Of a stretch of DNA of 64,000 bases, positions 514 through 49,697 are shown one piece after another. Origin of the DNA: an uncultured bacterium. GTDB taxonomy: Bacteria; Verrucomicrobiota; Verrucomicrobiia; Verrucomicrobiales; V1-33. The translations under genes were made by a program, and so were the position numbers. Positions within the stretch are counted from its first letter, which is position 1. Each line of letters starts with the position of its first letter. The notes under the pieces were generated by a model that saw only the letters and a program-made list of their open reading frames with translations, did no database searches and was not told where the DNA came from. The stretch lies in contig CAJBME010000240.1 in the NCBI GenBank assembly GCA_903954065.1, positions 8,732-72,731 of the forward strand, written 5' to 3'.

Positions 514-559
514 GATGCAGGGTTGTCACACTTTCGTCCCCGAGGTAAGAAAAAAAAAA

Positions 560-6400: not shown

Positions 6401-7555
6401 CTACATATAAGCATAGGAGCCGACGACTGGCCGAACCACAACTGGTGGGGAGCGCGACGCTCCCGCGGGCCGGATCCCGAAGGGTTTCAGTTTTTTGTCT
6501 GGGATCAGGAAATCTCCAATGTGAACACCGCGCATGCACGCAGTGCGTGGGGACCAATCTATGCGGAAGCCAATGCCGATGGCACGCCAACCCGCGTGTA
6601 TGCCCGGCTCCGGAGCAGCCCAGAATTCCGAATGCGCTTTGCCGACCGCGTGCAGCACCATCTTTTTGACGATGGGGCCCTCACCCAACATCGGAGTCTC
6701 GAACGCTGGCGCGCCCGGGTGGCGGAAATCGACCGGGCTCTGGTTGCCGAGTCGGCACGTTGGGGCGATGCGCAGGTGAATCATACCCGGCCGGGCCAGC
6801 CGTACACGCGGGAAAACGCTTGGTTGCCGCACCTCGACTGGATGGCGTCGAATTACTGGTCGCGGCAGCCAGCCACGGCGCTGACCCGCCTCAAGGTGGC
6901 CGGCCTATTCCCCGCGGTGTCTGCACCCCGCTTCAGCCCGGACGGCGGCACTACCCTCAGCAATCCTAACCCGGCCGCAGGCACGCTGTTTTACACGACA
7001 TCCGGAGAGGACCCCCGCCAGTGGGGCGGCACCATCAACCCGGCCGCCCGCAGCGCCACCGCCGACGTCACACTCGCCGTGCCCGGCCGCACGCTGGTGC
7101 GGGCCCGCGTTCGACAAGGAACCGTCTGGAGTGCACTGGCCGAAAAATGGTTTCCGCCCGGACCGGACCTCGATGAAGATGGCATCGATGACACCTGGGA
7201 AACAATCCATGGGTTTTCCACCAACGACCCCGCCGATGCGACGCTTGATTCCGATGGAGACGGGCAGAACACGCTCGAAGAATTTCTAGCTCACACCGAC
7301 CCCCGTCGCGCCTCCAGTCGACTGCATCTGCGCGCCTCCACCCCGAGCGCCGGGGACGGAACCATCATGCTGCACTTCGAGCTCCCCGCCGGGCGCCGCG
7401 CCGTCCTCGAACGCGCGTCCCGACTCGAAGGCCCACCGTCATGGTCTACCCTTGCTTCGTTTGGACCACAACCGGAAGCCACCGTCATCAACCATCCCAC
7501 CCCCATCGCCTCTCCACAGGAATTTTACCGGCTACGCCTCAGCCTAGCACCATAA
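3440..7555 (+). CDS. giant secreted CotH-family (atypical kinase-like) protein with lamin-tail, LamG-like, chitobiase-C-like and thrombospondin-type-3-like modules
   Basis: 1371 aa. Signal-like N-terminus MNTLRLLTVWMALHSLTTLTGPAQA. LTD motif LTEILASNRGGRRDEDGDSPDWMEIYNPG..LELGGWYLTD. LamG-like segment around DDFAIWETAL. ATIVYTTDGSVPT. CotH core NFTPKHGFSLRFRSEYG...YCHLYLNGLYWGLYNVTE. DLDEDGIDDTWE/DSDGDGQNTLEEF calcium-binding-type repeats. Confidence 0.85.
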   Translation: MNTLRLLTVWMALHSLTTLTGPAQADDTHDDTTATAPRPVLTEILASNRGGRRDEDGDSPDWMEIYNPGTDALELGGWYLTDSPRLLTRWQFPHSTRLPAGGRIVVFASGKDRAVAGAPLHTNFQLAAEGESVLLVAPDGQTVASQILNYPAQRENASYGVAWQFKPAPLLTQGSAARVHVPKSPEPDWMQPGYDDSAWLTATLGIGFDRSEMTSGDGLLGWWNFDEAGTPSRARDASGQGRDGIVSRSVFSADGLGRSGRAGDRSMVFQGSGVVSFPAAATGGFDAMAVRDTFTISVWTLGAATLPQDNAIFYGTSGTGGGGERVLDAHLPWSDSTIYFDTAGCCDTGTTRIQINEPDTTQWRGQWNHYVFLKNGDTKQIWQNGRLLHEAVNTANQTVLRSLFLGAMNSAGALGYRGRVDDFAIWETALEPAQIAALAAGARPPDVRRLTPLLGTDIGDALHTIQTTAYVRVPLTIEPGEPPNLLMMRMKYDDGFVAWLNGVEVARRHAPEVLTHTSAATVQRDRSAAMTVEEFDLSRFASLLRPGVNILALQGLNHGVNDGTFLLGPELRAGRMEEGRFFTTPTPGEANGLGVSGFVEPVSVSPERGFYEGPVTATLSCATPGATIVYTTDGSVPTRLHGTSGLSPLQTEIKRTTLLRTSAFKDSLAPADVTTHTYLFVDQVAAQQRPPGAPAVWPDGSPGDFAMDPRVPGPAPAPGYSLRESLLALPSLSLISDPAALWGPAGIYTQPTARGKTWERLTSVEWLDPSSPKGFGAAAGLRIHGNISRNKNFTPKHGFSLRFRSEYGHPSLNFPLFPGSPVEEFDELVVRAGSTDTWPCTEWAPSGLGPNGEPYQRWNRDWASYVRDQWARDSHLAMGHEDFRGRYCHLYLNGLYWGLYNVTETPSASHMAAHLGGPEQEWDTVADFSELRDGSRATWDQLLQMANRGQLSNDAGLRRVQGLRPDGTRDPALPRLLNVDNLIDYIILHISIGADDWPNHNWWGARRSRGPDPEGFQFFVWDQEISNVNTAHARSAWGPIYAEANADGTPTRVYARLRSSPEFRMRFADRVQHHLFDDGALTQHRSLERWRARVAEIDRALVAESARWGDAQVNHTRPGQPYTRENAWLPHLDWMASNYWSRQPATALTRLKVAGLFPAVSAPRFSPDGGTTLSNPNPAAGTLFYTTSGEDPRQWGGTINPAARSATADVTLAVPGRTLVRARVRQGTVWSALAEKWFPPGPDLDEDGIDDTWETIHGFSTNDPADATLDSDGDGQNTLEEFLAHTDPRRASSRLHLRASTPSAGDGTIMLHFELPAGRRAVLERASRLEGPPSWSTLASFGPQPEATVINHPTPIASPQEFYRLRLSLAP

Positions 7556-9078: not shown

Positions 9079-11142
9079 ATGAGCGATTCATTCGAGTCCA
9101 CCGACGCCCCGGCACCCAAAAAACGTGCGGCCAAAAAAGCGGCGGCTAAAAAGACGAGCGCCACCAAAACCGCCGCCACGCGCGCCCCGAAGGCCGTCGC
9201 AGAAAGCGCCGCCCCACCGCCAGCGCCACCCACGCCTGCCACGCCGAAAAAGTCCGCCCGCAAAGCGGCAGCCCCAGCCGTGGTGGCCACCGCCGCCCCC
9301 GTCATCAACGAAGCCCCGCCAGCCAAAAAAGCCGCGCGCAAAATCGCCCGCAAATCGGCCGCCGTGGAATCCAGCAGTCCTGCCCCGCCGCCAGCAACCG
9401 CGCCAGCGCCCGCGGCGCCACGGACCGCACCAGCTCCAACACCGGCACCCGAGCCACGGACCACACCGGCGGCGACCCGTACGCCGACGACAGACCCCCG
9501 TCCGCCGGCCCCGGGAGACACGGGCATGACCGCCCCGCGGCCTGCTCCGGCGCGCCCCCTGGAAGACGCGATCCCCAGAGGGAACCCCGATCCATCGACG
9601 TCCTATTCACGCCCCCCACGCACGGGAGAGGACAGCCCCTATCAGGGCAGCTCCGAACAGGCTCCGCGTCATCCAGACTCCGGCCCGCCTCATCCGCGCC
9701 ACGCCCAGCAGCAGCACCAGCGCCCGCCTCGCCCCCCTCACGGAGCTCCCACCCAGGGGCCATCCGGCGACCCACGCTTTGACAAAAACCCACGCAAACG
9801 CCGCCGTCGCGGCCGCGACCGTTGGAAAGACCGCCAAGGAGAAGGCCCGCCCCCACCTCACGGAGGCCCGCCGCACGGCGGAGGCGGACCGCGTCAGGGT
9901 GGAAATCCCAGCCACCAGCGTCCCGCACGCGGCGATTACCCGCCACGCCCCCCGCGTGGTCAGGATGACCGCGGCGACCGCGGCGACCGTAGCGAGTCTT
10001 TTGTTCCCACTGGCCCCGCGGAACCGGGCAGCGGGCTCCTCGAAATCTCGGCCAAGGGATTTGGCTATTTGCGGCAAAAGTCCCGCAATTACATCCCTCA
10101 TCCGCAGGATATTTTTGTGACGCCTGAGATGGTGCGCAACGGCGGCCTACGCGATGGTGTTTTCCTCGAGGGGGAAATCCGCGCTGGCCAACGGGGCCCA
10201 CAGATGACGGCCTTGCACAAAATCAACGGTCGCGAACCTGCCAATTACAAAAACCTCCCCGCGTTCGAAGAACTGACGGCCATCAATCCGAGCAAGCGGA
10301 TCCTTCTGGAAACGGAACCGAACCGGGCCACCACGCGGATTATCGACATGATTGCGCCCATCGGCAAAGGCCAGCGCGGCTTGATCGTGGCCCCGCCCCG
10401 CGCCGGCAAAACGACGCTCTTGCAACACATTGCCGAAGCCGTAGCCCTGAAATATCCCGAGATGAAACTCATCATCCTCCTCGTGGATGAGCGTCCGGAA
10501 GAAGTCACCGAAATCACCCGCGCCATCCCACAGGCGGAAATCTATGCGAGCTCGAACGATGCCGAGCCCAAAAACCACCTGCGGATTGCCCAGATTGCCA
10601 TCGAGCGCGCCAAGCGCCTCGTCGAGGCCGGGGATGACGTCTTCATCGTGCTTGATTCCATCACCCGCCTAGCTCGCGCCAGCAACAATGCGATCATGGG
10701 CGGCGGGTCGGGCCGCACGATGTCCGGCGGTATTGACGCACGCGCGCTGGAACTGCCCCGGCGACTGTTTGCTTCCGCCCGCAACACCCGCGAAGCCGGC
10801 AGCCTGACCATCGTGGGCACGGCCCTGATCGAAACCAATTCCAAGGCGGATGAGCTGATTTTCCAGGAATTTAAGGGAACCGGCAACATGGAGCTCGTGC
10901 TCGATCGCAAAATCGCCCAAAGTTACGTCTACCCAGCCGTCGACATCTTCAAAAGCGGCACTCGCCGCGAAGAACTCCTCCTGCCAGCGCACCAGCTGGA
11001 AAAAATCAATCTGATCCGCCGCGGACTGGCCGGACACAAACCCGTCGAAGCCGTCGAGCGGCTACTTCATTTTGTCCGGCGCCATCCGACCAATGCCCAG
11101 ATGCTGCTCGACATCCCGAAAGCGGCCTTTGTCGATCATTGA
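9079..11142 (+). CDS. rho: transcription termination factor Rho with ~330-aa low-complexity N-terminal extension
   Basis: The C-terminal ~350 aa is canonical Rho: FGYLR, Walker A GQRGLIVAPPRAGKTTLL, DSITRLARA, KGTGNMELVLDR. The N-terminus is Lys/Ala-rich (KKRAAKKAAAKKTSATK), then Pro/Ala/Arg/Gly-rich. Confidence 0.95.
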   Translation: MSDSFESTDAPAPKKRAAKKAAAKKTSATKTAATRAPKAVAESAAPPPAPPTPATPKKSARKAAAPAVVATAAPVINEAPPAKKAARKIARKSAAVESSSPAPPPATAPAPAAPRTAPAPTPAPEPRTTPAATRTPTTDPRPPAPGDTGMTAPRPAPARPLEDAIPRGNPDPSTSYSRPPRTGEDSPYQGSSEQAPRHPDSGPPHPRHAQQQHQRPPRPPHGAPTQGPSGDPRFDKNPRKRRRRGRDRWKDRQGEGPPPPHGGPPHGGGGPRQGGNPSHQRPARGDYPPRPPRGQDDRGDRGDRSESFVPTGPAEPGSGLLEISAKGFGYLRQKSRNYIPHPQDIFVTPEMVRNGGLRDGVFLEGEIRAGQRGPQMTALHKINGREPANYKNLPAFEELTAINPSKRILLETEPNRATTRIIDMIAPIGKGQRGLIVAPPRAGKTTLLQHIAEAVALKYPEMKLIILLVDERPEEVTEITRAIPQAEIYASSNDAEPKNHLRIAQIAIERAKRLVEAGDDVFIVLDSITRLARASNNAIMGGGSGRTMSGGIDARALELPRRLFASARNTREAGSLTIVGTALIETNSKADELIFQEFKGTGNMELVLDRKIAQSYVYPAVDIFKSGTRREELLLPAHQLEKINLIRRGLAGHKPVEAVERLLHFVRRHPTNAQMLLDIPKAAFVDH

Positions 11143-16831: not shown

Positions 16832-18679
16832 ATGCATCCAGACCTCGAATCGCTTGTCACCGCCGGAAAACTACCCGCCCCGGCAGCGGAAAAACTCTCA
16901 CTCCTGGAACCAGGCACTTACTGCCTGCACCCGAGCTGGGGACCCGGCAAGATCGCGGGCTGGGACGTGGACAATGACCGGGTGCGCGTCGACTTCGAAG
17001 GCAAAGACGGTCACGAGCTGAAACTGGAGTTTGCGGCCAAGTCATTAAGCCCACTGGTTTCCACACATGTCCTCGCCATGCGGGTGGCTGACCGGGCCGC
17101 GATGACGACGATGGCCGAGAAGCAGGCGGCTGATTTTGTGAAGCTGGTCCTGCAGAGTTACGGTGGCCGCATGATGCTGGATCAGTTTGAAGAAGTAGTG
17201 AAGCCGAAGATCCTCAGCGAGGCGCGATTCAAGCCGTGGTGGGAGGCGACCAAGAAGGTGCTGCGGACCAACAAATCTTTTGTGGTCCCCCCGAAGCGCA
17301 CGTTGCCCATGGAGCTGCGCGATGAAGGTCTCACCCATGCCGAGGCGCTGGTCGGTGATTTCACCTCCTCCAAAGACCTCAAAACGAAGGTTAAAGCAGC
17401 CGAAGCCATCCTCAACAACCTCGCGGCCTTCGACAAAGATGCCGGTCCGCTCGGCACCGTGCTGGCCGGCCTGGAAGAAGCTGGTTCAAAATCGCTTCGC
17501 CTCCAGCCCAACGTCGCGTTCGAGCTCCTCCTCATTCGCGACGAACTCCTCGTCCGGGTCCCCACCCTCGGCACCCTGCCCGAAGGATCGCAAACCATCG
17601 CCGCCGCTCTGAATGACGAACGCAAGTCGGTCACCGACGTACTCAAAGCCCTGCCTATCGGTCGCACCAAACAACTTCTCGCCACTTTCCCCACTGCCTT
17701 CGGCGAGAGCTGGCTCCAAGAAGCCTTTGCCCGGTTGAACGATACCACCGGCCGCACCGTCACCGAAATTGCCCGCTTCATCATGGATCAGGGGAAATCC
17801 GAAGAGTTGATGATTTACCTCCAAACCGGCATTCAAAACCGCAGTCTGAGCATGGACGCCCTCCAGTGGGTGTGCCGCGAACGCAAAGCCGATGCCTTCG
17901 AGGTCTTTGACAGCGACTTTGCCCCGGCCCTGCTCAGCGCGCTGGAGCGGGAACACTATGACGAAAGCAACCGCCGCACCGGCCGCCTCCGCGACTTGAT
18001 CACCGACGATAAAGAATTGCTGGGGGACTTGGTCGCTCAACTTGACCCTAGCCAGATCAAGACTTTTGCCCGCCGCCTCTGGGGAAGCCCCGTCTTCGAT
18101 GACTTGACCCGCCGCTCGCTGCTGGCCCGCGTCATCAAGGCCGCACCAGAAGTCCAGAGCATCGTGGAACAAACCGAGGACGAAAGCGACGGATCCGATG
18201 ACATCCTCATCGTGAGCACCCAAAGCTATATCGACCGCCAAGCCAGCTACGAACGCCTCCTCAAAGAAGAAATCCCCCAGAATACACGCGATATCGCCAT
18301 CGCCCGCGGCTACGGCGACTTGCGCGAAAACTTCGAGTTCAAATCAGCCAAGGAACAACAACGGGTCCTGATGCGCCGTCAGAAAGTCATGGAACGCGAA
18401 ATCTCCATCGCGCGGCAGACTGACTTCAAAGATGCTCCAACTCACCTCGTCTCCATCGGCACCGTGGTCGAATACCGCGAATCTCCAACCGCAGAAATCG
18501 AAAGCGTCACGTTGCTCGGCGCTTGGGATTCGGAACCAGCACGCGGGATTCTTAGCTATCTTTCCGGTATCGGCAAAGCCTTGATCGGCAAGGCCGTCGG
18601 TGAAGTAGCCACTCTGCCGACCTCTGACGGCACGCCCCGCGGAGTCACCATCACTTCCATCCGGCGCTTCGCCCAGTAA
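16832..18679 (+). CDS. long GreA/GreB-family transcription elongation factor-like protein
   Basis: 615 aa. The C-terminus has Gre-type motifs GYGDLRENFEFKSAKEQQRVL and SIGTVVEYRE...VTLLGAWDSEPARGILSYLSGIGKALIGKAVGEV. The N-terminus has a small CarD-like beta motif, PGKIAGWDVDNDRVRVDFEG. Confidence 0.8.
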   Translation: MHPDLESLVTAGKLPAPAAEKLSLLEPGTYCLHPSWGPGKIAGWDVDNDRVRVDFEGKDGHELKLEFAAKSLSPLVSTHVLAMRVADRAAMTTMAEKQAADFVKLVLQSYGGRMMLDQFEEVVKPKILSEARFKPWWEATKKVLRTNKSFVVPPKRTLPMELRDEGLTHAEALVGDFTSSKDLKTKVKAAEAILNNLAAFDKDAGPLGTVLAGLEEAGSKSLRLQPNVAFELLLIRDELLVRVPTLGTLPEGSQTIAAALNDERKSVTDVLKALPIGRTKQLLATFPTAFGESWLQEAFARLNDTTGRTVTEIARFIMDQGKSEELMIYLQTGIQNRSLSMDALQWVCRERKADAFEVFDSDFAPALLSALEREHYDESNRRTGRLRDLITDDKELLGDLVAQLDPSQIKTFARRLWGSPVFDDLTRRSLLARVIKAAPEVQSIVEQTEDESDGSDDILIVSTQSYIDRQASYERLLKEEIPQNTRDIAIARGYGDLRENFEFKSAKEQQRVLMRRQKVMEREISIARQTDFKDAPTHLVSIGTVVEYRESPTAEIESVTLLGAWDSEPARGILSYLSGIGKALIGKAVGEVATLPTSDGTPRGVTITSIRRFAQ

Positions 18680-18697: not shown

Positions 18698-19927
18698 ATG
18701 GCGGCCCCTTCCCCGCCTGCCCCAGCTTTGCTCATGAGAGACCGCCCCATCACGCGACTATCCGTCCGCCGGGTGTACCTCGCCGCGGCCATCCTCCTGG
18801 CCGCGAGCCCGCAGGCCTGCCGCCCAGCGGCCAAATCCGCGGCCCTGCCTGCCGCCCCGCCCGCGGTCACCGTGGCGGCACCAGTCAGCCGAACCATCAC
18901 CGAATGGAATGAATTCTCCGGGCGTCTGGCCTCGCCCGCTCGGGTCGAAATCAGAGCCCGCGTCTCCGGACACCTTGACACCGTCCACTTTAAAGAAGGC
19001 TCGGTCGTGCAGCAAGGGGACCTGCTGTTCACGATCGACCCGCGCCCGTATGCGGTGGAAGCAGCCCGTCTGCAGGCCGACGTCGAGCGAATGAGGACGC
19101 GGGTGGACCTGGCCCGCATTGAGTCACGCAACGCCGAACAACTGCGCGCCTCAGCGGCCATTTCCAACGAAGAAATGGAGCGACGCTTCAAGGCGCTGGG
19201 TGAAACCCTCGGCTCTGTCAAAGCTGCCGAAGCCGCGCTGGAAGCGGCGCAGCTCGACCTCAAGTTTACGGAAGTGCGGTCGCCCATCACCGGGCGCATC
19301 AGCAATGCCCGAGTCACCGCCGGAAATCTAGTCCGAGGCGGCACCCAGGAAACGACCCTGCTGACCACCGTGGTCGCCCTCGACCCGATTCATTGCTACT
19401 TTGAGGTCGATGAACGCTCGGCGTTAAAATACCGGGACCTAATTCGTTCGGGACAACTCCCTCACGCGCTGGATGGCGGTATGCCAGCCGAAATGGGACT
19501 GGCCGATCAGGCGGATTTCTCGCATCAGGGGGTGGTCGATTTCATGGACAACGAGTTGGCGCCGGGCACGGGCACTCTTCGCGCCCGCGGTGTTTTCCCC
19601 AATCCCGACCGGTTGATGGTTCCGGGATTTTTTGCGCGGGTGCGCATTCCTGGAAGTGAAGCCCGCGAGACGTTGTTGATCCGCGATCAAGCCGTCAGTG
19701 ATGATCAGGGCCGGAGTTTTGTCTGGGTGGTGGGGCCGGATAACACTGCGATCTATCGTCCGGTCGTGCTCGGCCCGAAAACCGACGGTCTCAGAATCGT
19801 GCGCGACGGGCTTGCCGCCGGAGAACGCGTGGTCATCAATGGCGCAATGGCCGTGCGCGCCGGCGCCAAAGTGACCGCCACCGACGGGACCATGGATCCC
19901 GCTCCACCCTCCACCCCAAAGCCGTGA
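18698..19927 (+). CDS. RND efflux periplasmic adaptor (membrane fusion protein)
   Basis: EFSGRLASPARVEIRARVSGHLDTVHFKEGSVVQQGDLLFTIDPRPY and LDLKFTEVRSPITGRIS match the HlyD/AcrA family pattern. Confidence 0.92.
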   Translation: MAAPSPPAPALLMRDRPITRLSVRRVYLAAAILLAASPQACRPAAKSAALPAAPPAVTVAAPVSRTITEWNEFSGRLASPARVEIRARVSGHLDTVHFKEGSVVQQGDLLFTIDPRPYAVEAARLQADVERMRTRVDLARIESRNAEQLRASAAISNEEMERRFKALGETLGSVKAAEAALEAAQLDLKFTEVRSPITGRISNARVTAGNLVRGGTQETTLLTTVVALDPIHCYFEVDERSALKYRDLIRSGQLPHALDGGMPAEMGLADQADFSHQGVVDFMDNELAPGTGTLRARGVFPNPDRLMVPGFFARVRIPGSEARETLLIRDQAVSDDQGRSFVWVVGPDNTAIYRPVVLGPKTDGLRIVRDGLAAGERVVINGAMAVRAGAKVTATDGTMDPAPPSTPKP

Positions 19928-19934
19928 ACGGCTT

Positions 19935-22900
19935 ATGAATTTCGCCCGCTACTTCGTGGACCGGCCGATTTTTGCCGGGGTCCTCAGCATCCTCATCACT
20001 CTGATCGGGGCCTTGGCGTACTTCCGGCTGCCGGTCACCCAGTACCCGGAAGTCGTCCCTCCCACCGTCGTCGTCAACGCCAGCTACCCGGGAGCCGATG
20101 CCAAAACGCTCGCCGAAACCGTAGCCACTCCGCTCGAGCAGGAAATCAACGGCGTGGAAAACATGCTGTATGTGTCGTCGTCGTCGACGGCTGACGGCCG
20201 AGTCCAAATCACCGTCACTTTCAAACTCGGCACCGACCTGAATCAGGCTCAGGTTCTCGTACAAAACCGGCTGAATGCCACCCTACCGCGCTTGCCCGAA
20301 GAAGTGCGCCGCCTCGGCGTGACCGCACAAAAACGCTCGCCAGACCTCACTCTGACCGCCCAGTTCTTCAGCCCCGATGGCTCGCGCGACGTCTCCTACC
20401 TCGCCAATTACGTCACCCTGCAGGTTCAGAATGAAATCGCCCGCCTGCCAGGCGTGGCCGAAGCCTCCATGCTCGGCGGTCTGGATTATTCCATGCGCCT
20501 CTGGCTCGACCCGGAAAAAGTCGCCGCCCTCGGACTGAACGCCGGCGATGTCATCCGCGCCGTGCGCGAACAAAACGTCCAGGTCGCCGCCGGCAGTCTA
20601 GGCCAGCCTCCCACCCCCGCCGGGGTCGACTTCCAATACACCCTGACCGCACCAGGTCGGCTGAAAACTCCCGAAGAATTCGGCCACATCGTCCTCAAAA
20701 CCGGCGACCACGGTGAAGTCGCCCGCTTGAGCGACGTCGCCCGCATCGAGCTGGGCTCCCGCGATTATGCCACCCATACCTACATGGATGGGAAAAATGC
20801 CGTCTCCCTGCGCGTCTTTCAACTGCCCGGCAGCAACGCCCTCGACACCGCCGATGCCGTCTACACTGCCATCCAGCGGCTAAAAAAACGGTTTCCGCCC
20901 GGCGTTGATTACCGAATCAACTACGACACCACAAAATTCGTCCGCTCCTCCATCCAGTCGGTACTGCACACCCTGCTGGAGGCCGTCCTGCTCGTGGTCG
21001 TCGTGGTCATTCTTTTTCTGCAAACATGGCGCGCGTCCATCATCCCACTGCTGGCCGTGCCCGTCTCACTCATCGGCACCCTCGCCGTCACGCATGCGCT
21101 GGGGTTTTCACTGAACAATCTCTCGCTCTTCGGACTCGTGCTTTCAATCGGCATCGTGGTCGATGACGCCATTGTCGTGGTGGAAAACATTGAACGCAAT
21201 GTGGCGGCTGGCTTGAGCCCGCGCGACGCCGCGCGCAAAGCGATGGACGAAGTGAGCGGAGCGGTCATTGCCGTCGCGCTCGTCCTTTGCGCGGTCTTTA
21301 TTCCCACCGCCTTCATCAGCGGCATTACCGGCCAGTTTTACCGTCAATTCGCACTGACGATTGCTGTGTCCACGGTCATTTCCGCCTTCAACTCGCTCAC
21401 GCTATCACCGGCGCTGGGGGCGCTCTTGATTCGTCCGCACCATCACCGCACCGATATACTAACCCGCGTGCTCAATAAGCTGCTGGGATGGTTTTTCCGC
21501 CGCTTTAACCGCTCGTTCGACTGGGCTGCTCAGGCCTATGCCGGCGGGGTGCGGCGGCTGCTCCGAGGCACCACCGTCGTCCTGACGGCCTATGTTGCCC
21601 TGATTGGCCTCGGGGCCTGGCTCTTTCGCACCGTCCCCGGCGGATTCATTCCGGCCCAAGACATGGGGTACATGATCGCCGTTATCCAGCTGCCCGACGC
21701 CGCATCGCTGGCCCGAACCGATGAAGTCGTCCGGCGCGTCGACGAAATAGCCCGCCAGACGCCGGGCATCGCTCACACCTTCGCCCTTTCCGGCTATTCC
21801 TCCGTTCTCCAAGCCAGCCAGTCAAACCTCGGAGCCGCATTCTTCATCCTCGATGACTTTGATCAACGCACTTCCCCGGAACTGCAAGCCGACCGCCTGA
21901 CCGCCACTCTCCGCCAGAAATTCTCCGCCATTCAAGAAGCCCGGGTCATCGTCCTCCCACCCCCAGCCCTGCGCGGCCTGGGCAACGCCGGCGGCTTTAA
22001 AATTCAAGTCCAAGACCTGAACAACGCCGGATTGCCCGCCCTCGAGGCCGCCACCCAAAAACTCCTCGCCGCCGCTCAAAAAGATCCCCTGCTCACCTCC
22101 CTCATCACCGGGTTCCGCGCCAATTCACCGCAATTTCACATCGATCTGGATCGCGCCCAAGCCAAAACCATGGGCGTCTCGCTGGCCGATATCAACGAAG
22201 CCCTTCAAGTGTATCTCGGGTCGTCCTACGTCAATGACTTCAACCTCTTCGGACGCACCTACCAAGTGACCGCCCAAGCGGACCCCGCCTTCCGCACCAG
22301 CCCGTCCGATCTGGCCCGCATCAAAGTGCGCAATCAAGACGGTGACATGGTGCCGCTCAGCGCCGTCACCACCGTTCTCAAAAATGGCGGAGCCGATCGC
22401 GTCCAACGCTACAACCTCTACTACTCATCCGATATCTCCGGCACCGTCACCCCAGGCGTCAGCTCCAGCCAGATGATCCATCGCGTCGAACAACTCGCCC
22501 AAGAACACCTGCCCGAAGGATTCACCTTCGCCTGGACGGACTTGACCTATCAGCAAATCCTCGCCGGACAGTCCATCAACTTCATCTTCCCTCTCTGCAT
22601 CCTCTTCGTCTTCCTCGTGCTGGCCGCCCTCTACGAAAGCTGGAGCCTGCCGCTCGCCATCATCCTCATCGTCCCCATGTGCCTGCTCTCCGCCATCGGA
22701 GGCGTCTGGCTGCTCAATCGAGATAATAATATCTTCACCCAAATCGGCCTGGTCGTGCTCGTCGGCCTAGCCGCCAAAAACGCCATCCTGATCGTCGAAT
22801 TTGCCAGACAAGCGCAAAATGCCGGCATGGACCGCACCCATGCCGCCGTCGAAGCCTGCCGCCTCCGGCTTCGCCCCATCCTCATGACCAGCTTCGCCTT

Positions 22901-23087
22901 CATCCTCGGCGTGCTTCCACTCGTACTGGCCCGCGGCGCCGGCGCCGAAATGCGCCAAGCCCTCGGGACCGCCGTCTTCTTCGGGATGCTCGGAGTCACC
23001 CTCTTCGGCCTGCTCTTCACTCCCGTGTTTTACGTCACCATCCGCCGATGGGTGGAACGCCGAACACCGCCAACCCCAGACGCCTGA
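19935..23087 (+). CDS. RND multidrug efflux permease (AcrB/HAE1-like)
   Basis: 1050 aa. MNFARYFVDRPIFAGVLSILITLIGALAYFRLPVTQYPEV plus 12-TM RND architecture motifs (VVDDAIVVVENIER, GLAAKNAILIVEFA). Confidence 0.95.
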   Translation: MNFARYFVDRPIFAGVLSILITLIGALAYFRLPVTQYPEVVPPTVVVNASYPGADAKTLAETVATPLEQEINGVENMLYVSSSSTADGRVQITVTFKLGTDLNQAQVLVQNRLNATLPRLPEEVRRLGVTAQKRSPDLTLTAQFFSPDGSRDVSYLANYVTLQVQNEIARLPGVAEASMLGGLDYSMRLWLDPEKVAALGLNAGDVIRAVREQNVQVAAGSLGQPPTPAGVDFQYTLTAPGRLKTPEEFGHIVLKTGDHGEVARLSDVARIELGSRDYATHTYMDGKNAVSLRVFQLPGSNALDTADAVYTAIQRLKKRFPPGVDYRINYDTTKFVRSSIQSVLHTLLEAVLLVVVVVILFLQTWRASIIPLLAVPVSLIGTLAVTHALGFSLNNLSLFGLVLSIGIVVDDAIVVVENIERNVAAGLSPRDAARKAMDEVSGAVIAVALVLCAVFIPTAFISGITGQFYRQFALTIAVSTVISAFNSLTLSPALGALLIRPHHHRTDILTRVLNKLLGWFFRRFNRSFDWAAQAYAGGVRRLLRGTTVVLTAYVALIGLGAWLFRTVPGGFIPAQDMGYMIAVIQLPDAASLARTDEVVRRVDEIARQTPGIAHTFALSGYSSVLQASQSNLGAAFFILDDFDQRTSPELQADRLTATLRQKFSAIQEARVIVLPPPALRGLGNAGGFKIQVQDLNNAGLPALEAATQKLLAAAQKDPLLTSLITGFRANSPQFHIDLDRAQAKTMGVSLADINEALQVYLGSSYVNDFNLFGRTYQVTAQADPAFRTSPSDLARIKVRNQDGDMVPLSAVTTVLKNGGADRVQRYNLYYSSDISGTVTPGVSSSQMIHRVEQLAQEHLPEGFTFAWTDLTYQQILAGQSINFIFPLCILFVFLVLAALYESWSLPLAIILIVPMCLLSAIGGVWLLNRDNNIFTQIGLVVLVGLAAKNAILIVEFARQAQNAGMDRTHAAVEACRLRLRPILMTSFAFILGVLPLVLARGAGAEMRQALGTAVFFGMLGVTLFGLLFTPVFYVTIRRWVERRTPPTPDA

Positions 23088-23182
23088 TAGCCCGCAACAT
23101 TCGCGCTGTCCCCGACGTGCGCGAGCTTATACGTTTTCACCCGCGGACTCGACAGACTGCCAATCAGGGGCATGGATAAGGG

Positions 23183-24535
23183 GTGGTATTTTCTGACGAT
23201 ACGATTGCGGCGGTGGCAACACCCTTTGGACAGGGAGCGATCTCAATGCTCCGGCTGAGCGGACCGAGGGCCCGAGAAATTTTCGCGAGGTGCTGGCGCG
23301 GACCGGTGTTGGATGATCCGCGGCGATCGGTGCTCGGCCGGATCGTTCGAGTGCAAGCGGACGGCGGACGAGCGGTAGTGGACGAAGGACTGGCCGTGTT
23401 TTTTGCCGGACCGGCCAGCTATACGGGGGAGGATGTCATCGAATTTTCCGGCCATGGTGGGGTGTTAGTGACGCGGCGCGTCTTGGATGCGGTACTGGCC
23501 GCCGGGGCGCGGCTGGCGGATCCGGGAGAATTCACCCAGCGCGCCTTCCTCCATGGCCGGCTGGACCTGACGCAGGCGGAGGCCGTGATGGACCTCATCT
23601 CAGCGCAGACTGACTTGGCACTGCAAGCCGCTCATGAGCAGCTAGCGGGGCGACTTGGCGAAAGATTGCTGGCTCTGCGCGGGGAGGTCTTGGGCCTACT
23701 GGCGCATGTCGAGGCCTTTATTGATTTCCCGGAGGAGGACATTGATCCTGATACGGGGGCGGTTTTGGTGGCGCGTCTGGACGCCGCCCGCGAGGCGGTG
23801 CATCGTCTGCTCGCCACGGCTGATCAGGGACGCGTGCTCCGTGATGGCGTGCGCACGGCTATTGTCGGCCCTCCCAACGTCGGCAAATCCAGCCTGCTCA
23901 ATCGCCTGCTTGGGTTTGACCGCGCCATTGTCAGTGATATTGCCGGCACTACCCGCGATACCCTTGAAGAAGTGATTAACCTGCGCGGCCTGCCGCTGCG
24001 GTTGATCGACACCGCCGGCCTCCGCGAATCTGATGACGTGCTCGAACGCGCCGGCATCGAACGCTCACATGCCGCCCTCGCCGGCGCCGGACTCGTCCTC
24101 GAAGTAGCCGACGGCTCGCAGCCGAAATCCCAGCCGACCACCGTCACTAACCCCGGCACCCCACATTTGCTCGTCCTCAACAAGGCGGATCTCGGCGAAG
24201 ATCCATCGTGGCACGGCACCGCCGCCATTCGCGTTTCATGCTCCAGCGGCGAAGGAATGGAGGCGCTTGCCGCAGCCATCGAATCATTGCTCACAGGAGG
24301 CGCCGTCACCTGGAACGCCGACCTCGTCTCCATCAACGCTCGCCATCAGGCCTGCCTGCAGGAGGCTCGCACCGCCCTCGATGCCGCACGCGACCTGCTC
24401 GTCACCAGCCAACCACCCGAACTGGCCGCAGAAGAACTCCGCGCCGCCATGCAAGCCATCGGCACCGTCGTCGGCCAGACCAACCCCGAGGAACTGCTCG
24501 GCCTCATCTTCGGGCAGTTCTGCATCGGGAAATAA
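23183..24535 (+). CDS. mnmE: tRNA uridine-5-carboxymethylaminomethyl modification GTPase MnmE
   Basis: GTG start. DTIAAVATPFGQGAISMLRLSG, G1 motif GPPNVGKSSLLN, DTAGLRE, NKADL, and a C-terminal CIGK tail. Confidence 0.95.
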   Translation: MVFSDDTIAAVATPFGQGAISMLRLSGPRAREIFARCWRGPVLDDPRRSVLGRIVRVQADGGRAVVDEGLAVFFAGPASYTGEDVIEFSGHGGVLVTRRVLDAVLAAGARLADPGEFTQRAFLHGRLDLTQAEAVMDLISAQTDLALQAAHEQLAGRLGERLLALRGEVLGLLAHVEAFIDFPEEDIDPDTGAVLVARLDAAREAVHRLLATADQGRVLRDGVRTAIVGPPNVGKSSLLNRLLGFDRAIVSDIAGTTRDTLEEVINLRGLPLRLIDTAGLRESDDVLERAGIERSHAALAGAGLVLEVADGSQPKSQPTTVTNPGTPHLLVLNKADLGEDPSWHGTAAIRVSCSSGEGMEALAAAIESLLTGGAVTWNADLVSINARHQACLQEARTALDAARDLLVTSQPPELAAEELRAAMQAIGTVVGQTNPEELLGLIFGQFCIGK

Positions 24536-40196: not shown

Positions 40197-40979
40197 TCAA
40201 GCCGGAACCGGCAACGGGGAAGTCAGCCGCGCGCGAGGCGTCAAGATTTCCGGGTCCCCCTGGGTGATGAGAACCGTATGCTCAAAGTGACTGCTCGGAC
40301 GGCCGTCGACAGTAACCGCCGTCCAGTTGTCGGCCAAAACGCGCGTTTTACCGCGACCCATGTTGATCATGGGTTCGATGGCGAGAATCATGCCGGCCTT
40401 CAGTTTGGTCCTGATAGACGGGTCGGCCCAGTTGGGCACTTGCGGTTCTTCGTGGAGTCGGCGTCCGACCCCATGACCCACGAATTGCCGGACGACACTA
40501 AACCCATGGCGGGTCACCAGTTTTTCGACGGCACCGCACAGATCACGCAGGCTGTTGTTATGACGCGCGAATGAAATAGCGGCGTCTAGGGAGTCCTCGG
40601 TAGCCTGCAGTAAACGCCACGTTTCAGGATCGATGTCGCCCACCGGCACGGTCATGGCATTATCCCCGACCCAGCCGTTGAGATAAACACCGACATCAAG
40701 CTTCACAATGTCGCCGTCACGGATAATCCGCGACGATCTCCCGATGCCATGCACGACTTCGTCGTTCAACGAAATACAGATATTAGCCGGGTAGTTACGG
40801 TACCCAAGGAATGCGCTGGTGCAGCCGTTCTCGCGAATGAGGTCAGCCGCCAGTCGATCGACCTCAGCGGTGGAGATCCCGGCACGAACCTGAGTGGCGA
40901 CAAGCCCCAGAATCTTGGCGGCTGCATGACCCGCCTGCCTCATCCCCTCAATTTCCTTTCCCTGGCGTAAGTGAATCAC
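40197..40979 (-). CDS. map: type I methionyl aminopeptidase
   Basis: KEIEGMRQAGHAAAKIL, VHGIG, metal ligands in DIVKLDVGV..GWVGD, FVGHGVG and EPMI. The start is GTG 40979 or TTG 41009. Confidence 0.93.
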   Translation of the reverse strand: MIHLRQGKEIEGMRQAGHAAAKILGLVATQVRAGISTAEVDRLAADLIRENGCTSAFLGYRNYPANICISLNDEVVHGIGRSSRIIRDGDIVKLDVGVYLNGWVGDNAMTVPVGDIDPETWRLLQATEDSLDAAISFARHNNSLRDLCGAVEKLVTRHGFSVVRQFVGHGVGRRLHEEPQVPNWADPSIRTKLKAGMILAIEPMINMGRGKTRVLADNWTAVTVDGRPSSHFEHTVLITQGDPEILTPRARLTSPLPVPA

Positions 40980-41051
40980 GGTAAATACTCTTAGGGCTGA
41001 TCCAAGCAAAACGCTCAGAAGTTGAGCGCCTGCTGGGCGATGATCCCGGGG

Positions 41052-42569
41052 TTACTGACCTGCACCGCTAAAAGCGAACATGGCAGCTCCAACAATAATC
41101 ACAGCGCAGAGAATAAGCAGCCAAGTGATGTTGCCACCAGCGATACCACCCGTTTCGGCTCCCTGACGCTCGAAGCGACCGCGAATCCGACCTTTGCGAA
41201 GGAAACCGTCATAATGCTTCTGCAACAGATGGGTTTCGATCTGGCGCATCATGTCGAGGAGAACCCCAACGAGAATGAGCAAACTGGTGCCTCCGAAGAA
41301 CTGGGAAACCGTAGGAGTCACGCCAGCCCAGTTGGAGATGATGGTGGGCAGGACCGCGATGATGACGAGAAAAATAGCACCAGCGAACGTCAGCCGGCTC
41401 ATCGTATAATCGAGGAAATCAGCTGTGGGTTTCCCAGGACGAACCCCTGGAATATAACCGCCGTTTTTCTTGAGATCTTCAGAGATCTGTGTCGGTTGGA
41501 ACATGGTCGCCACCCAGAAGTAACTGAAGAAGAAAATCAGAATGGCATCGAGAACGTAGTACCAAACACTCGTGTGGGAAAACAAGTTCTGCAACTTCGC
41601 ACCCCAAGCGCTAGCGCCAGCGAGAGTGGTCGCAATCCAAGTGGGGAACAAGATGATCGCTTGAGCAAAAATGATCGGCATGACACCGGCATAATTGATC
41701 TTAAGGGGCAAGTAGGTCGACTGACCTCCTACCACCTTCCGGCCCATTTGGCGTTTCGCATACTGGATGTTGACTCGCCGGGCCGCTTGCGTAATGGCCA
41801 CCACCCCTGCAATCACTGCGAGAAGGAGAGCGAGCAACATCACCAACCCGAGAGCCTTCAGAGAAGTATCTTGATCACCCGTAATGTACGTTTTCCACAC
41901 CTGAACCAAGGCCCCAGGAAGCGCGGTTAAGATGTTGGCCGAGATGATAAGAGACATCCCGTTACCGACGCCACGCTCCGTAATTTGGTCGCCCATCCAC
42001 ATGAGCAACATGGAAGCAGCCGTCATGGTTAGGACCGCAATCAGCTGAAATTGTAGGCCACCGTGAGGGATCAAAACGTTGCGAGTTTGATCCAGAAACT
42101 CACCGAGCTGTGGAAGAAGGATGTTCTGCGATGGATTCAACAATCCACCCACCATCATCCAGCCTTGAACCAAACAGAGAGCAATGGCCGCATAACGGGT
42201 CAACTGAGTGATACGCTGGCGACCGCCCTCTTCTTTGGCCAGTTTGCCCAAGCGCGGAACTACCGCAGTCAGGAGCTGCATCATGATGCTAGCACTGATG
42301 TAAGGCATAATGCCGAGCGCAAACAGAGCGCATTTGGCGATACCACCACCAGAGAAAACATTCAGCAATTGGGCGAACGCAGCACCGCCACCTTCCCCCT
42401 TCATCGCCTGCTGCTTGCTGTACTCGACCCACTCGTGAACAACCACAGGGTCGACACCAGGCAGAGTGATGTGAGTCCCGATTTGGACTACCACCAGCAT
42501 TAACAGAGTGAACAAGATCCGTTTCCGAAGCTCGGGGATCTTGAAGGAGTTGGCGAAGGCCGATATCAT
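41052..42569 (-). CDS. secY: preprotein translocase subunit SecY (with extra C-terminal hydrophobic tail)
   Basis: MISAFANSFKIPELRKRILFTLLMLVVVQIGTHITLPGVDP..., 505 aa. The canonical end ...YDGFLRKGRIRGR is followed by about 40 more residues that include a hydrophobic helix. Confidence 0.95.
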   Translation of the reverse strand: MISAFANSFKIPELRKRILFTLLMLVVVQIGTHITLPGVDPVVVHEWVEYSKQQAMKGEGGGAAFAQLLNVFSGGGIAKCALFALGIMPYISASIMMQLLTAVVPRLGKLAKEEGGRQRITQLTRYAAIALCLVQGWMMVGGLLNPSQNILLPQLGEFLDQTRNVLIPHGGLQFQLIAVLTMTAASMLLMWMGDQITERGVGNGMSLIISANILTALPGALVQVWKTYITGDQDTSLKALGLVMLLALLLAVIAGVVAITQAARRVNIQYAKRQMGRKVVGGQSTYLPLKINYAGVMPIIFAQAIILFPTWIATTLAGASAWGAKLQNLFSHTSVWYYVLDAILIFFFSYFWVATMFQPTQISEDLKKNGGYIPGVRPGKPTADFLDYTMSRLTFAGAIFLVIIAVLPTIISNWAGVTPTVSQFFGGTSLLILVGVLLDMMRQIETHLLQKHYDGFLRKGRIRGRFERQGAETGGIAGGNITWLLILCAVIIVGAAMFAFSGAGQ

Positions 42570-44654: not shown

Positions 44655-45053
44655 TTACCAAACTTCGGCTAGGTACTCGCCGCCAACATTGGCGCGACGA
44701 GCCTTGGCTCCAGAAAGGATACCTTTCGGTGTAGAGAGAATGGCAATGCCAAAACCTTTGATGACCTTAGGTACATCTTGGGATCCAACATAACGCCGAC
44801 GGCCTGGCTTGCTTACCCGACGTAGATCGGTCAGGGCAGCGGTTTTGCCTTCAAAACGATTGGTGACAACCAAACGAGTGAAACCGTCAACCGTAGTGAC
44901 TTCGTAGTTCCAGATAAACCCTTCTTCTTTCAGAATGCGGGCGATGTCCACTTTAATGCGGGAGTGCGGAGCGTCGAATGTCTCCTTGCGAGCACGCACG
45001 GAGTTTTTCAGACGGGTCAAAAAGTCGGCGATAGGATCGGTCAATGTGGCCAT
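44655..45053 (-). CDS. rpsH: 30S ribosomal protein S8
   Basis: Start moved to MATLTDPIADFLTRLKNSVRARKETF (ATG at 45053). The track ORF extends to 45191 and overlaps rplE. Confidence 0.93.
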   Translation of the reverse strand: MATLTDPIADFLTRLKNSVRARKETFDAPHSRIKVDIARILKEEGFIWNYEVTTVDGFTRLVVTNRFEGKTAALTDLRRVSKPGRRRYVGSQDVPKVIKGFGIAILSTPKGILSGAKARRANVGGEYLAEVW

Positions 45054-48203: not shown

Positions 48204-48587
48204 CTAGGCGGCTGGTTTACGACCGGCGCCCTTCTGCTTTGGCTGAGGAAGTGGGATCTCGTCGGAGAGGACGATAGTGATATGACTGCTGCGGCGTTTA
48301 ATCGCGGAAGCAGAGCCCTTAGCGCGCTGGGTAATGCGGGCGAGGTGGCGGGCTTCAGTGACGATGGCGCTTTTGACGACCAGACTGTTGGGAGCCAGTC
48401 CATTGTTGTGCTCCGCATTGGCCACGGCGCTTTTTAGCGTTTTACCGATCAATGTTGCGGCTTTTTTCGGCACGAAATTAAGCAGGTCCAGAGCGCGCGA
48501 GGCGGACAGACCTTGAATTTCGCGAGCGACTTCCCGCGCCTTGAGGGGCGAGATGCGCTGCTGACGGGCGATGGCTCGGACTTCCAT
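48204..48587 (-). CDS. rplV: 50S ribosomal protein L22
   Basis: [26 protein letters not shown]...[19 protein letters not shown]. Confidence 0.95.
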
Positions 48588-48622
48588 GATTGATTCGGGT
48601 TCGAAGGGGGCGGTGAAATGGC

Positions 48623-49399
48623 CTAGTTTGACTCTGAGAGCAAGCGAAGAGTGTCACCAACCTGAGGAAACTCCTCTCCTTCCAGGGCGGTGACGACACT
48701 TCCACTTAAACTGTTGCGTACTTCCACCACGACGGCGGAAGCGAGGGGGCGATCGTTACGATAAATTCTAAGAGGCGTCCCGGGTTTGAGACCGGCACGC
48801 TGACCCGCATTGATGAGAAGCAAACGTTGCTCGGGTTTAATACTGACGATGCGGCTGGACTCAATTCGCGAGGAGGCGGCGACCGGCTCGACAGAAGAAT
48901 CCGCATCAGCGAGAGCTGTGGCCGCGATTAAAGCAGATTCTAAGGCTTCGCGAACCGCTGGAACTTCAACCGCACCCGGCTGAAGCACCGCTTGAGCGCA
49001 TTCGATCAGTTGATGAAGACTTTCTTGAGCGGCTGCCTCACTGGCCCGCGTCAGACGCAAATCGTTGATGGCATCAAGCAAGCGACTTTCCAAAACGGCT
49101 GTAGTGGCAGGCGCACCGGTCAGTTCGGCTCGCTGGCGAAGTTGCAAGGCCTCCTCCCGAGCGGCCGAAGCCTCGGCGCTCAGAATACCAACCTTGACCG
49201 CCATCGCATTGTTGGCAGCTGTCTCAGCGTGGTACCGATCTTGCAAGACCTTGTTTTGCGCCAGAGCGGCCTTGAGTGCCGTTCGGCATTCTATGGCATC
49301 AAACTGAGCGTCCTGGGCCTGAGCACCGTACACACCCACGCTGCTGACCGCCAGAGAGGCAGACAAAAGCAATGAGGATGATGACAGTGACAAGACCAT
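48623..49399 (-). CDS. signal-peptide-bearing coiled-coil protein of unknown function, embedded in the S10 operon
   Basis: ATG at 49399 (MVLSLSSSSLLLSASLAVSSVGVYGAQAQD...), 259 codons. It starts 19 nt after the rpsS stop and ends 35 nt before the rplV start, on the same strand. The track's 348-aa version (to 49669) overlaps rpsS out of frame and is not credible upstream of 49399. Confidence 0.7.
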   Translation of the reverse strand: MVLSLSSSSLLLSASLAVSSVGVYGAQAQDAQFDAIECRTALKAALAQNKVLQDRYHAETAANNAMAVKVGILSAEASAAREEALQLRQRAELTGAPATTAVLESRLLDAINDLRLTRASEAAAQESLHQLIECAQAVLQPGAVEVPAVREALESALIAATALADADSSVEPVAASSRIESSRIVSIKPEQRLLLINAGQRAGLKPGTPLRIYRNDRPLASAVVVEVRNSLSGSVVTALEGEEFPQVGDTLRLLSESN

Positions 49400-49418
49400 G
49401 GAAAAAGGAAAAAGAGAA

Positions 49419-49697
49419 CTACTTGCTGACCTTGGCTGTGTGATTGCCGTGGCTGATGAACTTGCGAGTCGGGCTGAATTCACCGAGGCGGTGACCGACC
49501 ATGTTTTCCGTGACGTAGACCGTGGGGAAGTCTTTGCCGTTGTGCACGAGAAAGGTGTGACCGACGAAGTCAGGCGTGACCATGCTGGCACGGGACCAGG
49601 TTTTGATCGGTTTTTTCTGATTGGCCGAATTGAGCTTGTCGATTTTGACCAGCAATTTCTGCTGAACAAAAGGGCCTTTTTTGAGTGAGCGTCCCAT
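49419..49697 (-). CDS. rpsS: 30S ribosomal protein S19
   Basis: [23 protein letters not shown]...[28 protein letters not shown]. Confidence 0.96.

Follow-up and report, generated by a model that had tools for sequence, protein, structure and literature searches.

We examined a 64,000-nucleotide stretch of DNA (hereafter the window) from an uncultured bacterium of the Verrucomicrobiales (GTDB lineage V1-33; GenBank assembly GCA_903954065.1, contig CAJBME010000240.1, positions 8,732 to 72,731 of the forward strand), in which an open reading frame (ORF) separates the ribosomal protein genes rpsS, encoding S19, and rplV, encoding L22. Few bacterial gene strings are as conserved as that of S10. 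On the minus strand of the window, genes run in the order EF-G, S10, L3, L4, L23, L2, S19, ORF, L22, S3, L16, L29, S17, L14, L24, L5 and S8, and apart from the ORF this str/S10/spc string is canonical in order up to S8. The S19 of the window is 88-99% identical to S19 at related loci, and the Pfam family Ribosomal_S19 is recorded for the orthologous genes of three loci described below (L001, L002 and L003). An original prediction, made from the letters of the sequence alone, had placed a same-strand, non-ribosomal ORF in this interval; we verified its coordinates and the gaps of 19 and 35 nucleotides (nt) that flank it, and the N-terminal and C-terminal peptides that were quoted match the translation (Table 1).

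Table 1. Features of the rpsS-rplV interval, in window coordinates, with the basis of each assignment (aa, amino acids or residue numbers of the ORF product).
Feature	Position	Strand	Basis or remark
rpsS (S19, 92 aa)	49697..49419	minus	Upstream neighbour; translation
S19-ORF spacer, 19 nt, U-rich	49400..49418	minus	No Shine-Dalgarno sequence, promoter or terminator
Inserted ORF, ATG start, 258 codons plus stop	48623..49399	minus	Translation; homolog searches
Predicted Sec signal peptide, aa 1-28	49316..49399	minus	Sequence and family heuristic
Helical domain, aa 29-167	48899..49315	minus	AlphaFold2, periodicity and coevolution
Hairpin tip, aa 88-116	49052..49138	minus	Alignments A1 and A2; per-column conservation
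Linker, aa 168-179	48863..48898	minus	Variable length and sequence; low model confidence
Predicted six-stranded beta-barrel, aa 180-255	48635..48862	minus	AlphaFold2 domain model; Foldseek
ORF-L22 spacer, 35 nt	48588..48622	minus	Promoter and terminator not found
rplV (L22, 127 aa)	48204..48587	minus	Downstream neighbour; all listed homologs carry PF00237

In frame, no stop codon occurs upstream before a TTG at 49669, and the mechanical ORF of 48623-49669 overlaps rpsS. We took the ATG at 49399 as the start because it agrees with the alignments of homologs and with where the signal peptide lies. Start errors in both directions occur elsewhere in the family: gene callers sometimes extend its products falsely across rpsS, to 305-343 aa (P0029, P0037 and P0062), and at one locus (L016) the start was called too far downstream, giving a product of 226 aa that lacks the leader. 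A Shine-Dalgarno sequence is absent upstream of the ORF, as it is in 12 of the 16 neighbouring genes examined; its absence is therefore uninformative, since most ribosomal genes of the same operon lack one too. The 25-nt upstream leader of the ORF is U-rich and resembles those of EF-G, S17 and L5.

On the coding strand, neither gap contains a sigma-70-like promoter or an intrinsic-terminator-like site, in agreement with the earlier claim that the gene has no room for transcription signals of its own. Because room and signals are lacking and all relatives have similarly short gaps, co-transcription with the S10 operon is, judging from the sequence, very likely. The G+C content of the ORF (56-59%) is the same as that of its flanks. 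Scanning the whole window against Rfam returned zero RNA families, so no known ribosomal leader or riboswitch lies near the ORF. The inserted gene is single-copy within the window, and neither repeats nor integrase or mobile-element genes were found around it; with the normal G+C content, this led us to reject a mobile-element insertion.

The same arrangement was found in other genomes. Homologs lie between S19 and L22, on the same strand, at L001, L002 and L003 (40-61% identity to the ORF) and at the more divergent loci L010, L011, L012/L013 and L014 (23-26%), and on the short contig L009 a homolog sits directly upstream of L22. To guard against circularity, we picked four further loci by their L22 protein alone (L015, L016, L086 and L087), the first of which belongs to the complete genome of the cultured Sulfuriroseicoccus oceanibius (Verrucomicrobiaceae; CP066776.1), with the gene at about 1120257-1121063. 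Each has a gene of 226-268 aa, without a Pfam match, in the S19-L22 slot, and all four proved to be family members by profile comparison (hhalign probability 100%, E values of 1.8e-41 and 7.7e-44; hmmsearch E values of 2e-76 and 6e-75). At L016, the called family gene ends on the first base of L22.

The order S19-homolog-L22 is identical at five reference loci from metagenome-assembled genomes (MAGs; L004-L008). A first genome scan had given only five loci, a count that under-represents the family, because the search patterns were narrow, and is not a sign of rarity. A metagenome scan with the tight, distant-clade alignment A6 (alignments A2 and A5 were too diverse) returned 69 more loci. Where a locus had enough sequence on the relevant side to be testable, S19 was immediately upstream in 52/52 cases and L22 immediately downstream in 55/55, with a median S19-homolog gap of about 22 nt over the 52 loci at which S19 was located. 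We found no exception to this placement over 12 contig look-ups, the five reference MAGs and the 69 metagenome loci. The arrangement thus recurs in more than 80 independent assemblies.

These assemblies span considerable divergence. Between the window and L010-L014, identity is 58-61% for L2, 62-64% for S3, 52-55% for L22 and 23-26% for the ORF. Such recurrence excludes both a recent insertion and the assembly artefact that the original prediction had named as a possible refutation. From these comparisons we conclude that the insertion is ancient and retained, and that among the carriers sampled it is fixed and lineage-wide, not local. That the same junction has been kept while L2 has diverged to about 60% identity argues for strong selection on both product and position.

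Some details of the carriers deserve record. One locus (L008, CAZQUC010000008.1) is titled 'uncultured Enterobacteriaceae bacterium', and its ribosomal proteins are 84-88% identical to those of the window; these Verrucomicrobiales-like proteins and the presence of the family gene indicate that the title is a taxonomic mislabel. The label 'uncultured Akkermansia sp.' of L006 (CAZYHO010000002.1) may be loose. L22 itself varies in length from 111 to 180 aa among carriers (the window, L009-L016, L086 and L087) through C-terminal tails, and the L22 of the window ends in a basic tail.

To describe the family as a whole, we used two protein searches. A word-indexed search returned 36 clusters of about 245-260 aa, from 98% to 40% identical and none of them annotated. 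An exhaustive profile search of 1.84 billion representatives (50% clustering) returned 783 representatives at E ≤ 1e-3, 317 at ≤ 1e-10 and 50 at ≤ 1e-30; the best 150 listed matches are mostly full-length, at 240-290 aa. Homologs thus range from 98% to about 23% identity. Source labels of the clusters are MAGs of Verrucomicrobiales, Verrucomicrobiae or Verrucomicrobiia, and their products are called 'hypothetical protein', with the exception of two JGI entries named 'cell shape-determining protein MreC' (P0256 and P0267) and one spurious 'YgaE'. Scans of the window protein and 38 family members against Pfam and NCBIfam gave sub-threshold matches only (an FlgT_C motif, generic coiled-coil families, and MreC at E ≥ 0.028), so the protein does fall outside known families, as had been supposed. 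A search for an ortholog in Akkermansia muciniphila turned up no named or high-membership cluster. Taken on these sequence matches, the family is unannotated and appears to be specific to Verrucomicrobiia.

Comparison with the homolog at L004, which is 88% identical, gave a nonsynonymous rate (dN) of 0.068 and an unsaturated synonymous rate (dS) of 0.413. The resulting dN/dS of 0.165 indicates that the ORF is under clear purifying selection; for the same pair of genomes, dN/dS is 0.023 for S19, 0.011 for L22 and 0.039 for S3. The dS of the ORF is above that of its ribosomal neighbours, and the ORF evolves roughly ten times faster than they do. The S19-L22 interval therefore holds a genuine protein-coding gene and not a chance reading frame, a neutral ORF or a pseudogene, and the condition under which the earlier proposal was to be abandoned, absence from relatives or neutral evolution, is refuted.

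The encoded protein begins with a hydrophobic leader. In the window the leader reads MVLSLSSSSLLLSASLAVSSVGVYGAQA, followed by QD, and the likely cleavage site lies between AQA at residues 26-28 and this QD. Across 269 family sequences, an N-terminal hydrophobic stretch is present in about 90%, with a median start at residue 11 and a median uncharged run of 18 aa, and a lysine or arginine lies just ahead of the stretch in 83%. AXA-like sites are common, the leader sequence is poorly conserved, and a canonical lipobox is not general to these 269 sequences. By our heuristic test, this pattern is that predicted for Sec/signal peptidase I substrates, which bears out the earlier description of a signal-like N-terminus. 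Given the leader and the periplasmic nature of the nearest relatives, the protein is probably exported.

The mature N-terminal region is predicted to be helical. AlphaFold2, run on the full-length protein with a 19-sequence alignment, gave a model with a predicted local distance difference test score (pLDDT) of 75 and a predicted template-modelling score (pTM) of 0.31, in which helices span residues 27-94, 100-139 and 143-167. Helix 1 is 68 aa long, and helices 2 and 3 together are 65 aa. The family-averaged hydrophobicity has a period of 3.5 residues in helices 1 and 2. Mean-field direct coupling analysis (DCA) of 324 sequences (effective number 212) placed 23 of the top 40 inter-helix pairs at i+j = 180-199, where about 11 were expected, with the best antidiagonal at i+j = 194. 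The helix lengths and couplings together suggest an antiparallel hairpin with about 65 residues per arm and a turn near residue 97, and we regard an antiparallel coiled-coil hairpin as a model with moderate support. Around the turn lies the best-conserved helical segment (consensus R.EALG ... L.QRLL.AV.DLRL), in which G95, R106 and A110 are nearly invariant (≥90%) in the broad family alignment A2. Beyond the helices, pLDDT falls below 50 at residues 167-179.

The C-terminal domain was modelled with higher confidence. Modelled alone from 28 diverse sequences, it reached a pLDDT of 93.7 and a pTM of 0.82 and formed six strands. G199, G207, P209, R214, R228, G233, G248 and D249 are invariant family-wide, and most of the top DCA couplings lie within the barrel. 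Foldseek searches of the PDB returned FlgT at the top, in the Vibrio LPHT-ring (8z5n, E 9.7e-4) and as 3w1e (E 4.3e-3), with query template-modelling scores (TMq) of 0.68-0.69. The next matches were the N-terminal 'crown' barrels of F1/V1-ATPases and EscN (E about 1e-2 to 3e-2; root mean square deviation 2.4-3.5 Å). MreC (2j5u) was also matched at E 2e-2, with a TMq of 0.51 compared with 0.68 for the FlgT and F1 barrels. A fold search with the full-length protein gave no match beyond the barrel. Profile comparison with PDB sequences gave motif-level matches only, to a MexC-like adaptor (E 4.6e-5), to TsaP (E 8e-4) and weakly to AcrA; the MexC-like and AcrA matches span the motif VxxVRxxxSGxV...GD. 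According to a review (PMC4446572), a single six-stranded topology is common to the FlgT C-terminal domain, the periplasmic adaptor barrel and the N-terminal domain of F1 beta. On the strength of the model, the domain would belong to the fold class of the FlgT C-terminal domain, the periplasmic adaptor protein (PAP) barrel and the F1 crown, in which lateral packing into rings is typical. Structure prediction and Foldseek have thus turned the proposed beta-rich C-terminal module of about 70 aa into a predicted six-stranded barrel, just as the models, the 3.5-residue periodicity and the couplings agree with the helical middle region that was claimed alongside it.

We compared the codon usage of the gene with that of the ribosomal protein genes. 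Against a reference set of 14 ribosomal-protein genes and EF-G, the codon adaptation index (CAI) of the ORF is 0.60, below all 15 reference genes (0.68-0.85); secY scores 0.67, and other genes of the window score 0.58-0.77, a range at the bottom of which the ORF lies. The stoichiometric coupling to ribosomal proteins that the original prediction had envisaged is not borne out, because the codon adaptation of the ORF is below that of every ribosomal gene; co-transcription probably does not mean equimolar synthesis. From this codon usage, and from a dS above that of the flanking genes, we infer that translation of the ORF is less efficient than that of the ribosomal genes beside it. The associated suggestion that envelope growth is tied to growth rate is plausible, as speculation.

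Together, these observations lead us to favour, with moderate confidence, the reading that the product is an oligomeric scaffold or adaptor of the periplasm and that transcription of its gene, like that of secY, is tied to the making of ribosomes. With the gene on the S10 polycistron, its mRNA would follow ribosome synthesis in the way that secY does in the spc operon. The protein would be translated at a level below that of its ribosomal neighbours and then exported by the Sec pathway to the periplasm. There, the barrel may mediate lateral self-association into an oligomer or ring, as in FlgT, TsaP, the adaptor proteins and F1, and the conserved hairpin tip may dock onto a conserved envelope partner. 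The product would then serve the verrucomicrobial cell envelope as a structural scaffold or adaptor peculiar to this lineage.

Several points weigh against this reading. Oligomerization and partner docking are drawn by analogy, and by sequence comparison the family is without function-bearing homology. The fold-search E values are weak (1e-3 to 1e-2), and the barrel fold is widespread, cytoplasmic proteins included. All Pfam matches fall under the curated cut-offs, and that to FlgT_C covers about 25 of 77 positions (4 to about 30). The pTM of the full-length model is only 0.31, and the coevolution signal for the hairpin is modest (z = 2.2 for the best antidiagonal). The signal-peptide call comes from a home-made heuristic, and the n-region of the window protein itself has no lysine or arginine. 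Finally, 'lineage-wide' refers to the sampled carriers: outgroups are outside the sample, which leaves out Opitutales, Chthoniobacterales, Methylacidiphilales, Kiritimatiellia, Lentisphaeria, Chlamydiota, Planctomycetota and Akkermansia muciniphila.

A rather unlikely alternative is that the protein is a periplasmic 'jellyfish' holdase, with the barrel as its body and the hairpins as tentacles for unfolded outer-membrane or secreted proteins. Skp and prefoldin have such a body-and-tentacle design. A long helical hairpin joined to a small barrel that is likely to oligomerize, together with the predicted signal peptide, is what a holdase would have, and its placement in the superoperon would scale export-chaperone capacity with protein synthesis. 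The neighbourhood is also one of protein biogenesis, with secY (41052-42569) and map (40197-41009) downstream. The details fit less well. Neither Skp/OmpH nor prefoldin was matched in Pfam and PDB searches, and the hairpin of Skp is inserted within its beta-body whereas the barrel of the family is separate, contiguous and C-terminal. The tip is the most conserved helical segment, which suits specific docking better than a promiscuous tentacle. Skp is very basic, whereas the mature family protein is acidic (net charge -7).

It is less probable still that the gene has moved into the S10 operon from elsewhere and encodes a divergent MreC-like protein or another cell-wall morphogenesis factor, in which a membrane or periplasmic coiled coil and a barrel would regulate a peptidoglycan synthase. 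Such a protein would account for the two JGI labels (P0256 and P0267), the fold match to 2j5u at E 2e-2, the weak PF04085 matches in two of 28 members and the similar general plan. Those PF04085 matches score 14-15 bits against a cut-off of 28, the family has one barrel, and that barrel matches MreC at a TMq of 0.51, compared with 0.68 for FlgT and F1. The gene is never beside mreB or mreD and always between S19 and L22, and its leader looks cleavable.

We give the same small chance to a protein that is not exported at all, its N-terminus being a membrane anchor or misjudged, and that acts in the cytoplasm as a ribosome-associated or translation-associated factor. Genes in ribosomal operons are usually translation-related, and this, together with the strict embedding in the S10 operon over deep divergence, counts for a cytoplasmic role, as do the occurrence of the barrel fold in the N-domains of F1 and FliI and a leader in the window that has no basic n-region. 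Family-wide, however, the leader is present in about 90% of members, usually with a lysine or arginine before it and AXA-like sites after it, and is poorly conserved; by the positive-inside rule, most of the protein would lie outside the cytoplasm. The mature protein is acidic, unlike RNA-binding ribosomal proteins, and evolves roughly ten times faster than its ribosomal neighbours, and the nearest relatives in sequence or fold (FlgT, TsaP, adaptors and MreC) are all periplasmic. An envelope gene can sit in a ribosomal operon, as secY shows. An insertion that is selfish or has no function, or an artefact of assembly or annotation, might explain why functional annotation was found nowhere and why codon adaptation is below that of the neighbours, but this explanation is effectively refuted by the conservation data: a dN/dS of 0.165, a confident barrel model, eight invariant C-terminal residues across sequences that are 20-30% identical overall, and the same site in more than 80 assemblies without repeats, mobile-element genes or a compositional anomaly.

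The scaffold or adaptor reading can be taken further, to a form that we consider possible but doubtful: a dedicated exported envelope protein, acquired early in the history of the Verrucomicrobiia, has become an obligatory cistron of the S10 operon and forms a lineage-specific periplasmic ring or scaffold of barrels like the FlgT C-terminal domain with projecting hairpins, its abundance hard-wired to ribosome production. If true, this would be an unrecognized coupling of envelope architecture (periplasm width, outer-membrane tethering or the handling of outer-membrane proteins) to growth rate, and a clean molecular synapomorphy for the clade. A structural role may also bear on the unusual envelope organization reported for bacteria of the Planctomycetota-Verrucomicrobiota-Chlamydiota (PVC) group.

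In the literature on the S10 operon and Verrucomicrobia, on rpsS-rplV and on insertions into ribosomal clusters, an insertion at the S19/L22 junction was not described, and papers on PVC signature proteins concern other proteins. Non-ribosomal genes in ribosomal operons are known; the cistron at the S19/L22 junction, and a new family built from known structural elements, are new. The arrangement rpsS-X-rplV offers a genomic marker, both simple and robust, by which a major but little-studied lineage can be recognized. The family, a 'dark' one of at least 783 clusters at 50% identity, now has a confident domain model and an experimental entry point. With secY as the first case, its gene would be the second in which transcription of an envelope or export component is yoked to ribosome synthesis, here with a product predicted to be soluble and exported. 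For annotation, the gene is currently called 'hypothetical' and is occasionally mislabelled MreC or YgaE.

The window has other features besides this gene. rpsN (S14) is absent between L5 (45082-45684) and S8 (44655-45053), which are separated by a gap of 28 nt, and no S14-like motif was found anywhere in the 64-kb window; in L001-L003, too, S8 follows L5 without a gene between them. The window also lacks L30 at its usual place between S5 and L15, and adk at that between secY and map. The missing S14, L30 and adk are further departures from the textbook spc operon. On the plus strand, a GreA/GreB homolog of 615 aa (16832-18679) has its GreA domains at aa 461-611, and the N-terminal extension of about 460 aa ahead of them matches no Pfam family; Rho (9079-11142, 687 aa) has its RNA-binding domain only from aa 318, behind a long N-terminal region. 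A resistance-nodulation-division (RND) efflux pair lies in the plus-strand region 18698-24535, with an HlyD-family adaptor (18698-19927) and an AcrB-type pump (19935-23087); no outer-membrane factor adjoins it, and the next gene is mnmE (23183-24535). This adaptor is the only weak secondary match to a hidden Markov model (HMM) of the family's C-terminal domain (E 0.014), which we attribute to a shared barrel/lipoyl motif. Near the start of the window, also on the plus strand, are a DUF7133 protein of 1101 aa (86-3391) and a 1371-aa protein with Lamin-tail, Laminin_G_3, CHB_HEX_C and CotH kinase domains (3440-7555), which is probably a surface or secreted protein.

Comparison with named systems places the family close to several of them and within none. 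FlgT is the best fold match to its barrel, which has the FlgT barrel fold. FlgT_C (PF16538) is also the best Pfam motif match, found in 10 of 28 members at E ≤ 1, with a best E value of 7.5e-5 and 23.5 bits against a cut-off of 27. Identity with FlgT was rejected, as FlgT_C is sub-threshold, FlgT_N and FlgT_M are absent, the first 150 aa of the mature protein are predicted coiled coil and there is no flagellar context. FlgT, a protein of the Vibrio flagellar H-ring, and TsaP, which has FlgT-like domains and forms a ring associated with the type IV pilus secretin (PDB 3jc8), are Sec-exported periplasmic proteins with barrels packed in rings around envelope machines. Unlike them, the family has no LysM domain and no flagellar or pilus context, and it has an N-terminal coiled-coil hairpin, as predicted, and a site in the S10 operon.

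Periplasmic adaptors of tripartite pumps (AcrA, MexC and the HlyD family) resemble the modelled family protein in two elements: an antiparallel alpha-hairpin, long and conserved at its tip, and a barrel of the same six-stranded topology class. The adaptor tip docks an outer-membrane channel, which provides the working analogy for the conserved tip of the family. In adaptors, the hairpin is nested in a lipoyl domain that is itself nested in the barrel, whereas in the family the hairpin is followed by a contiguous barrel and both lipoyl and membrane-proximal domains are absent. A membrane-fusion protein was rejected because HlyD_D23, HlyD_3 and Biotin_lipoyl_2 were not found in the window protein or 28 family members and no inner-membrane transporter (RND, ABC or MFS) is adjacent; as a positive control, the genuine adaptor of the window matches all three models. 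MreC and the family have in common that a hydrophobic N-terminus is followed by a coiled coil and a beta-barrel. MreC has a two-barrel core and a signal anchor, whereas the family has a single barrel of about 70 aa and a cleavable-looking leader. We rejected MreC itself, since PF04085 reaches 14.4-14.6 bits in its two matching members and the gene never occurs in an mreB-mreC-mreD cluster. A ribosomal protein was rejected as well, on the lack of any ribosomal match in Pfam or NCBIfam, the net charge of the mature protein, the signal-like leader and the fast evolution.

By its position, the gene is best compared with secY, adk, map, infA and rpoA, the non-ribosomal genes of the S10-spc-alpha superoperon, which set a precedent for an envelope or protein-biogenesis cistron that shares its transcript with ribosomal protein genes but is translated at a lower rate of its own. 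Genes of the secY type are near-universal and of known function, and they lie in the spc and alpha parts, whereas the family gene is lineage-specific, interrupts the S10 part at the S19/L22 junction and encodes a product that is predicted to be soluble and exported.

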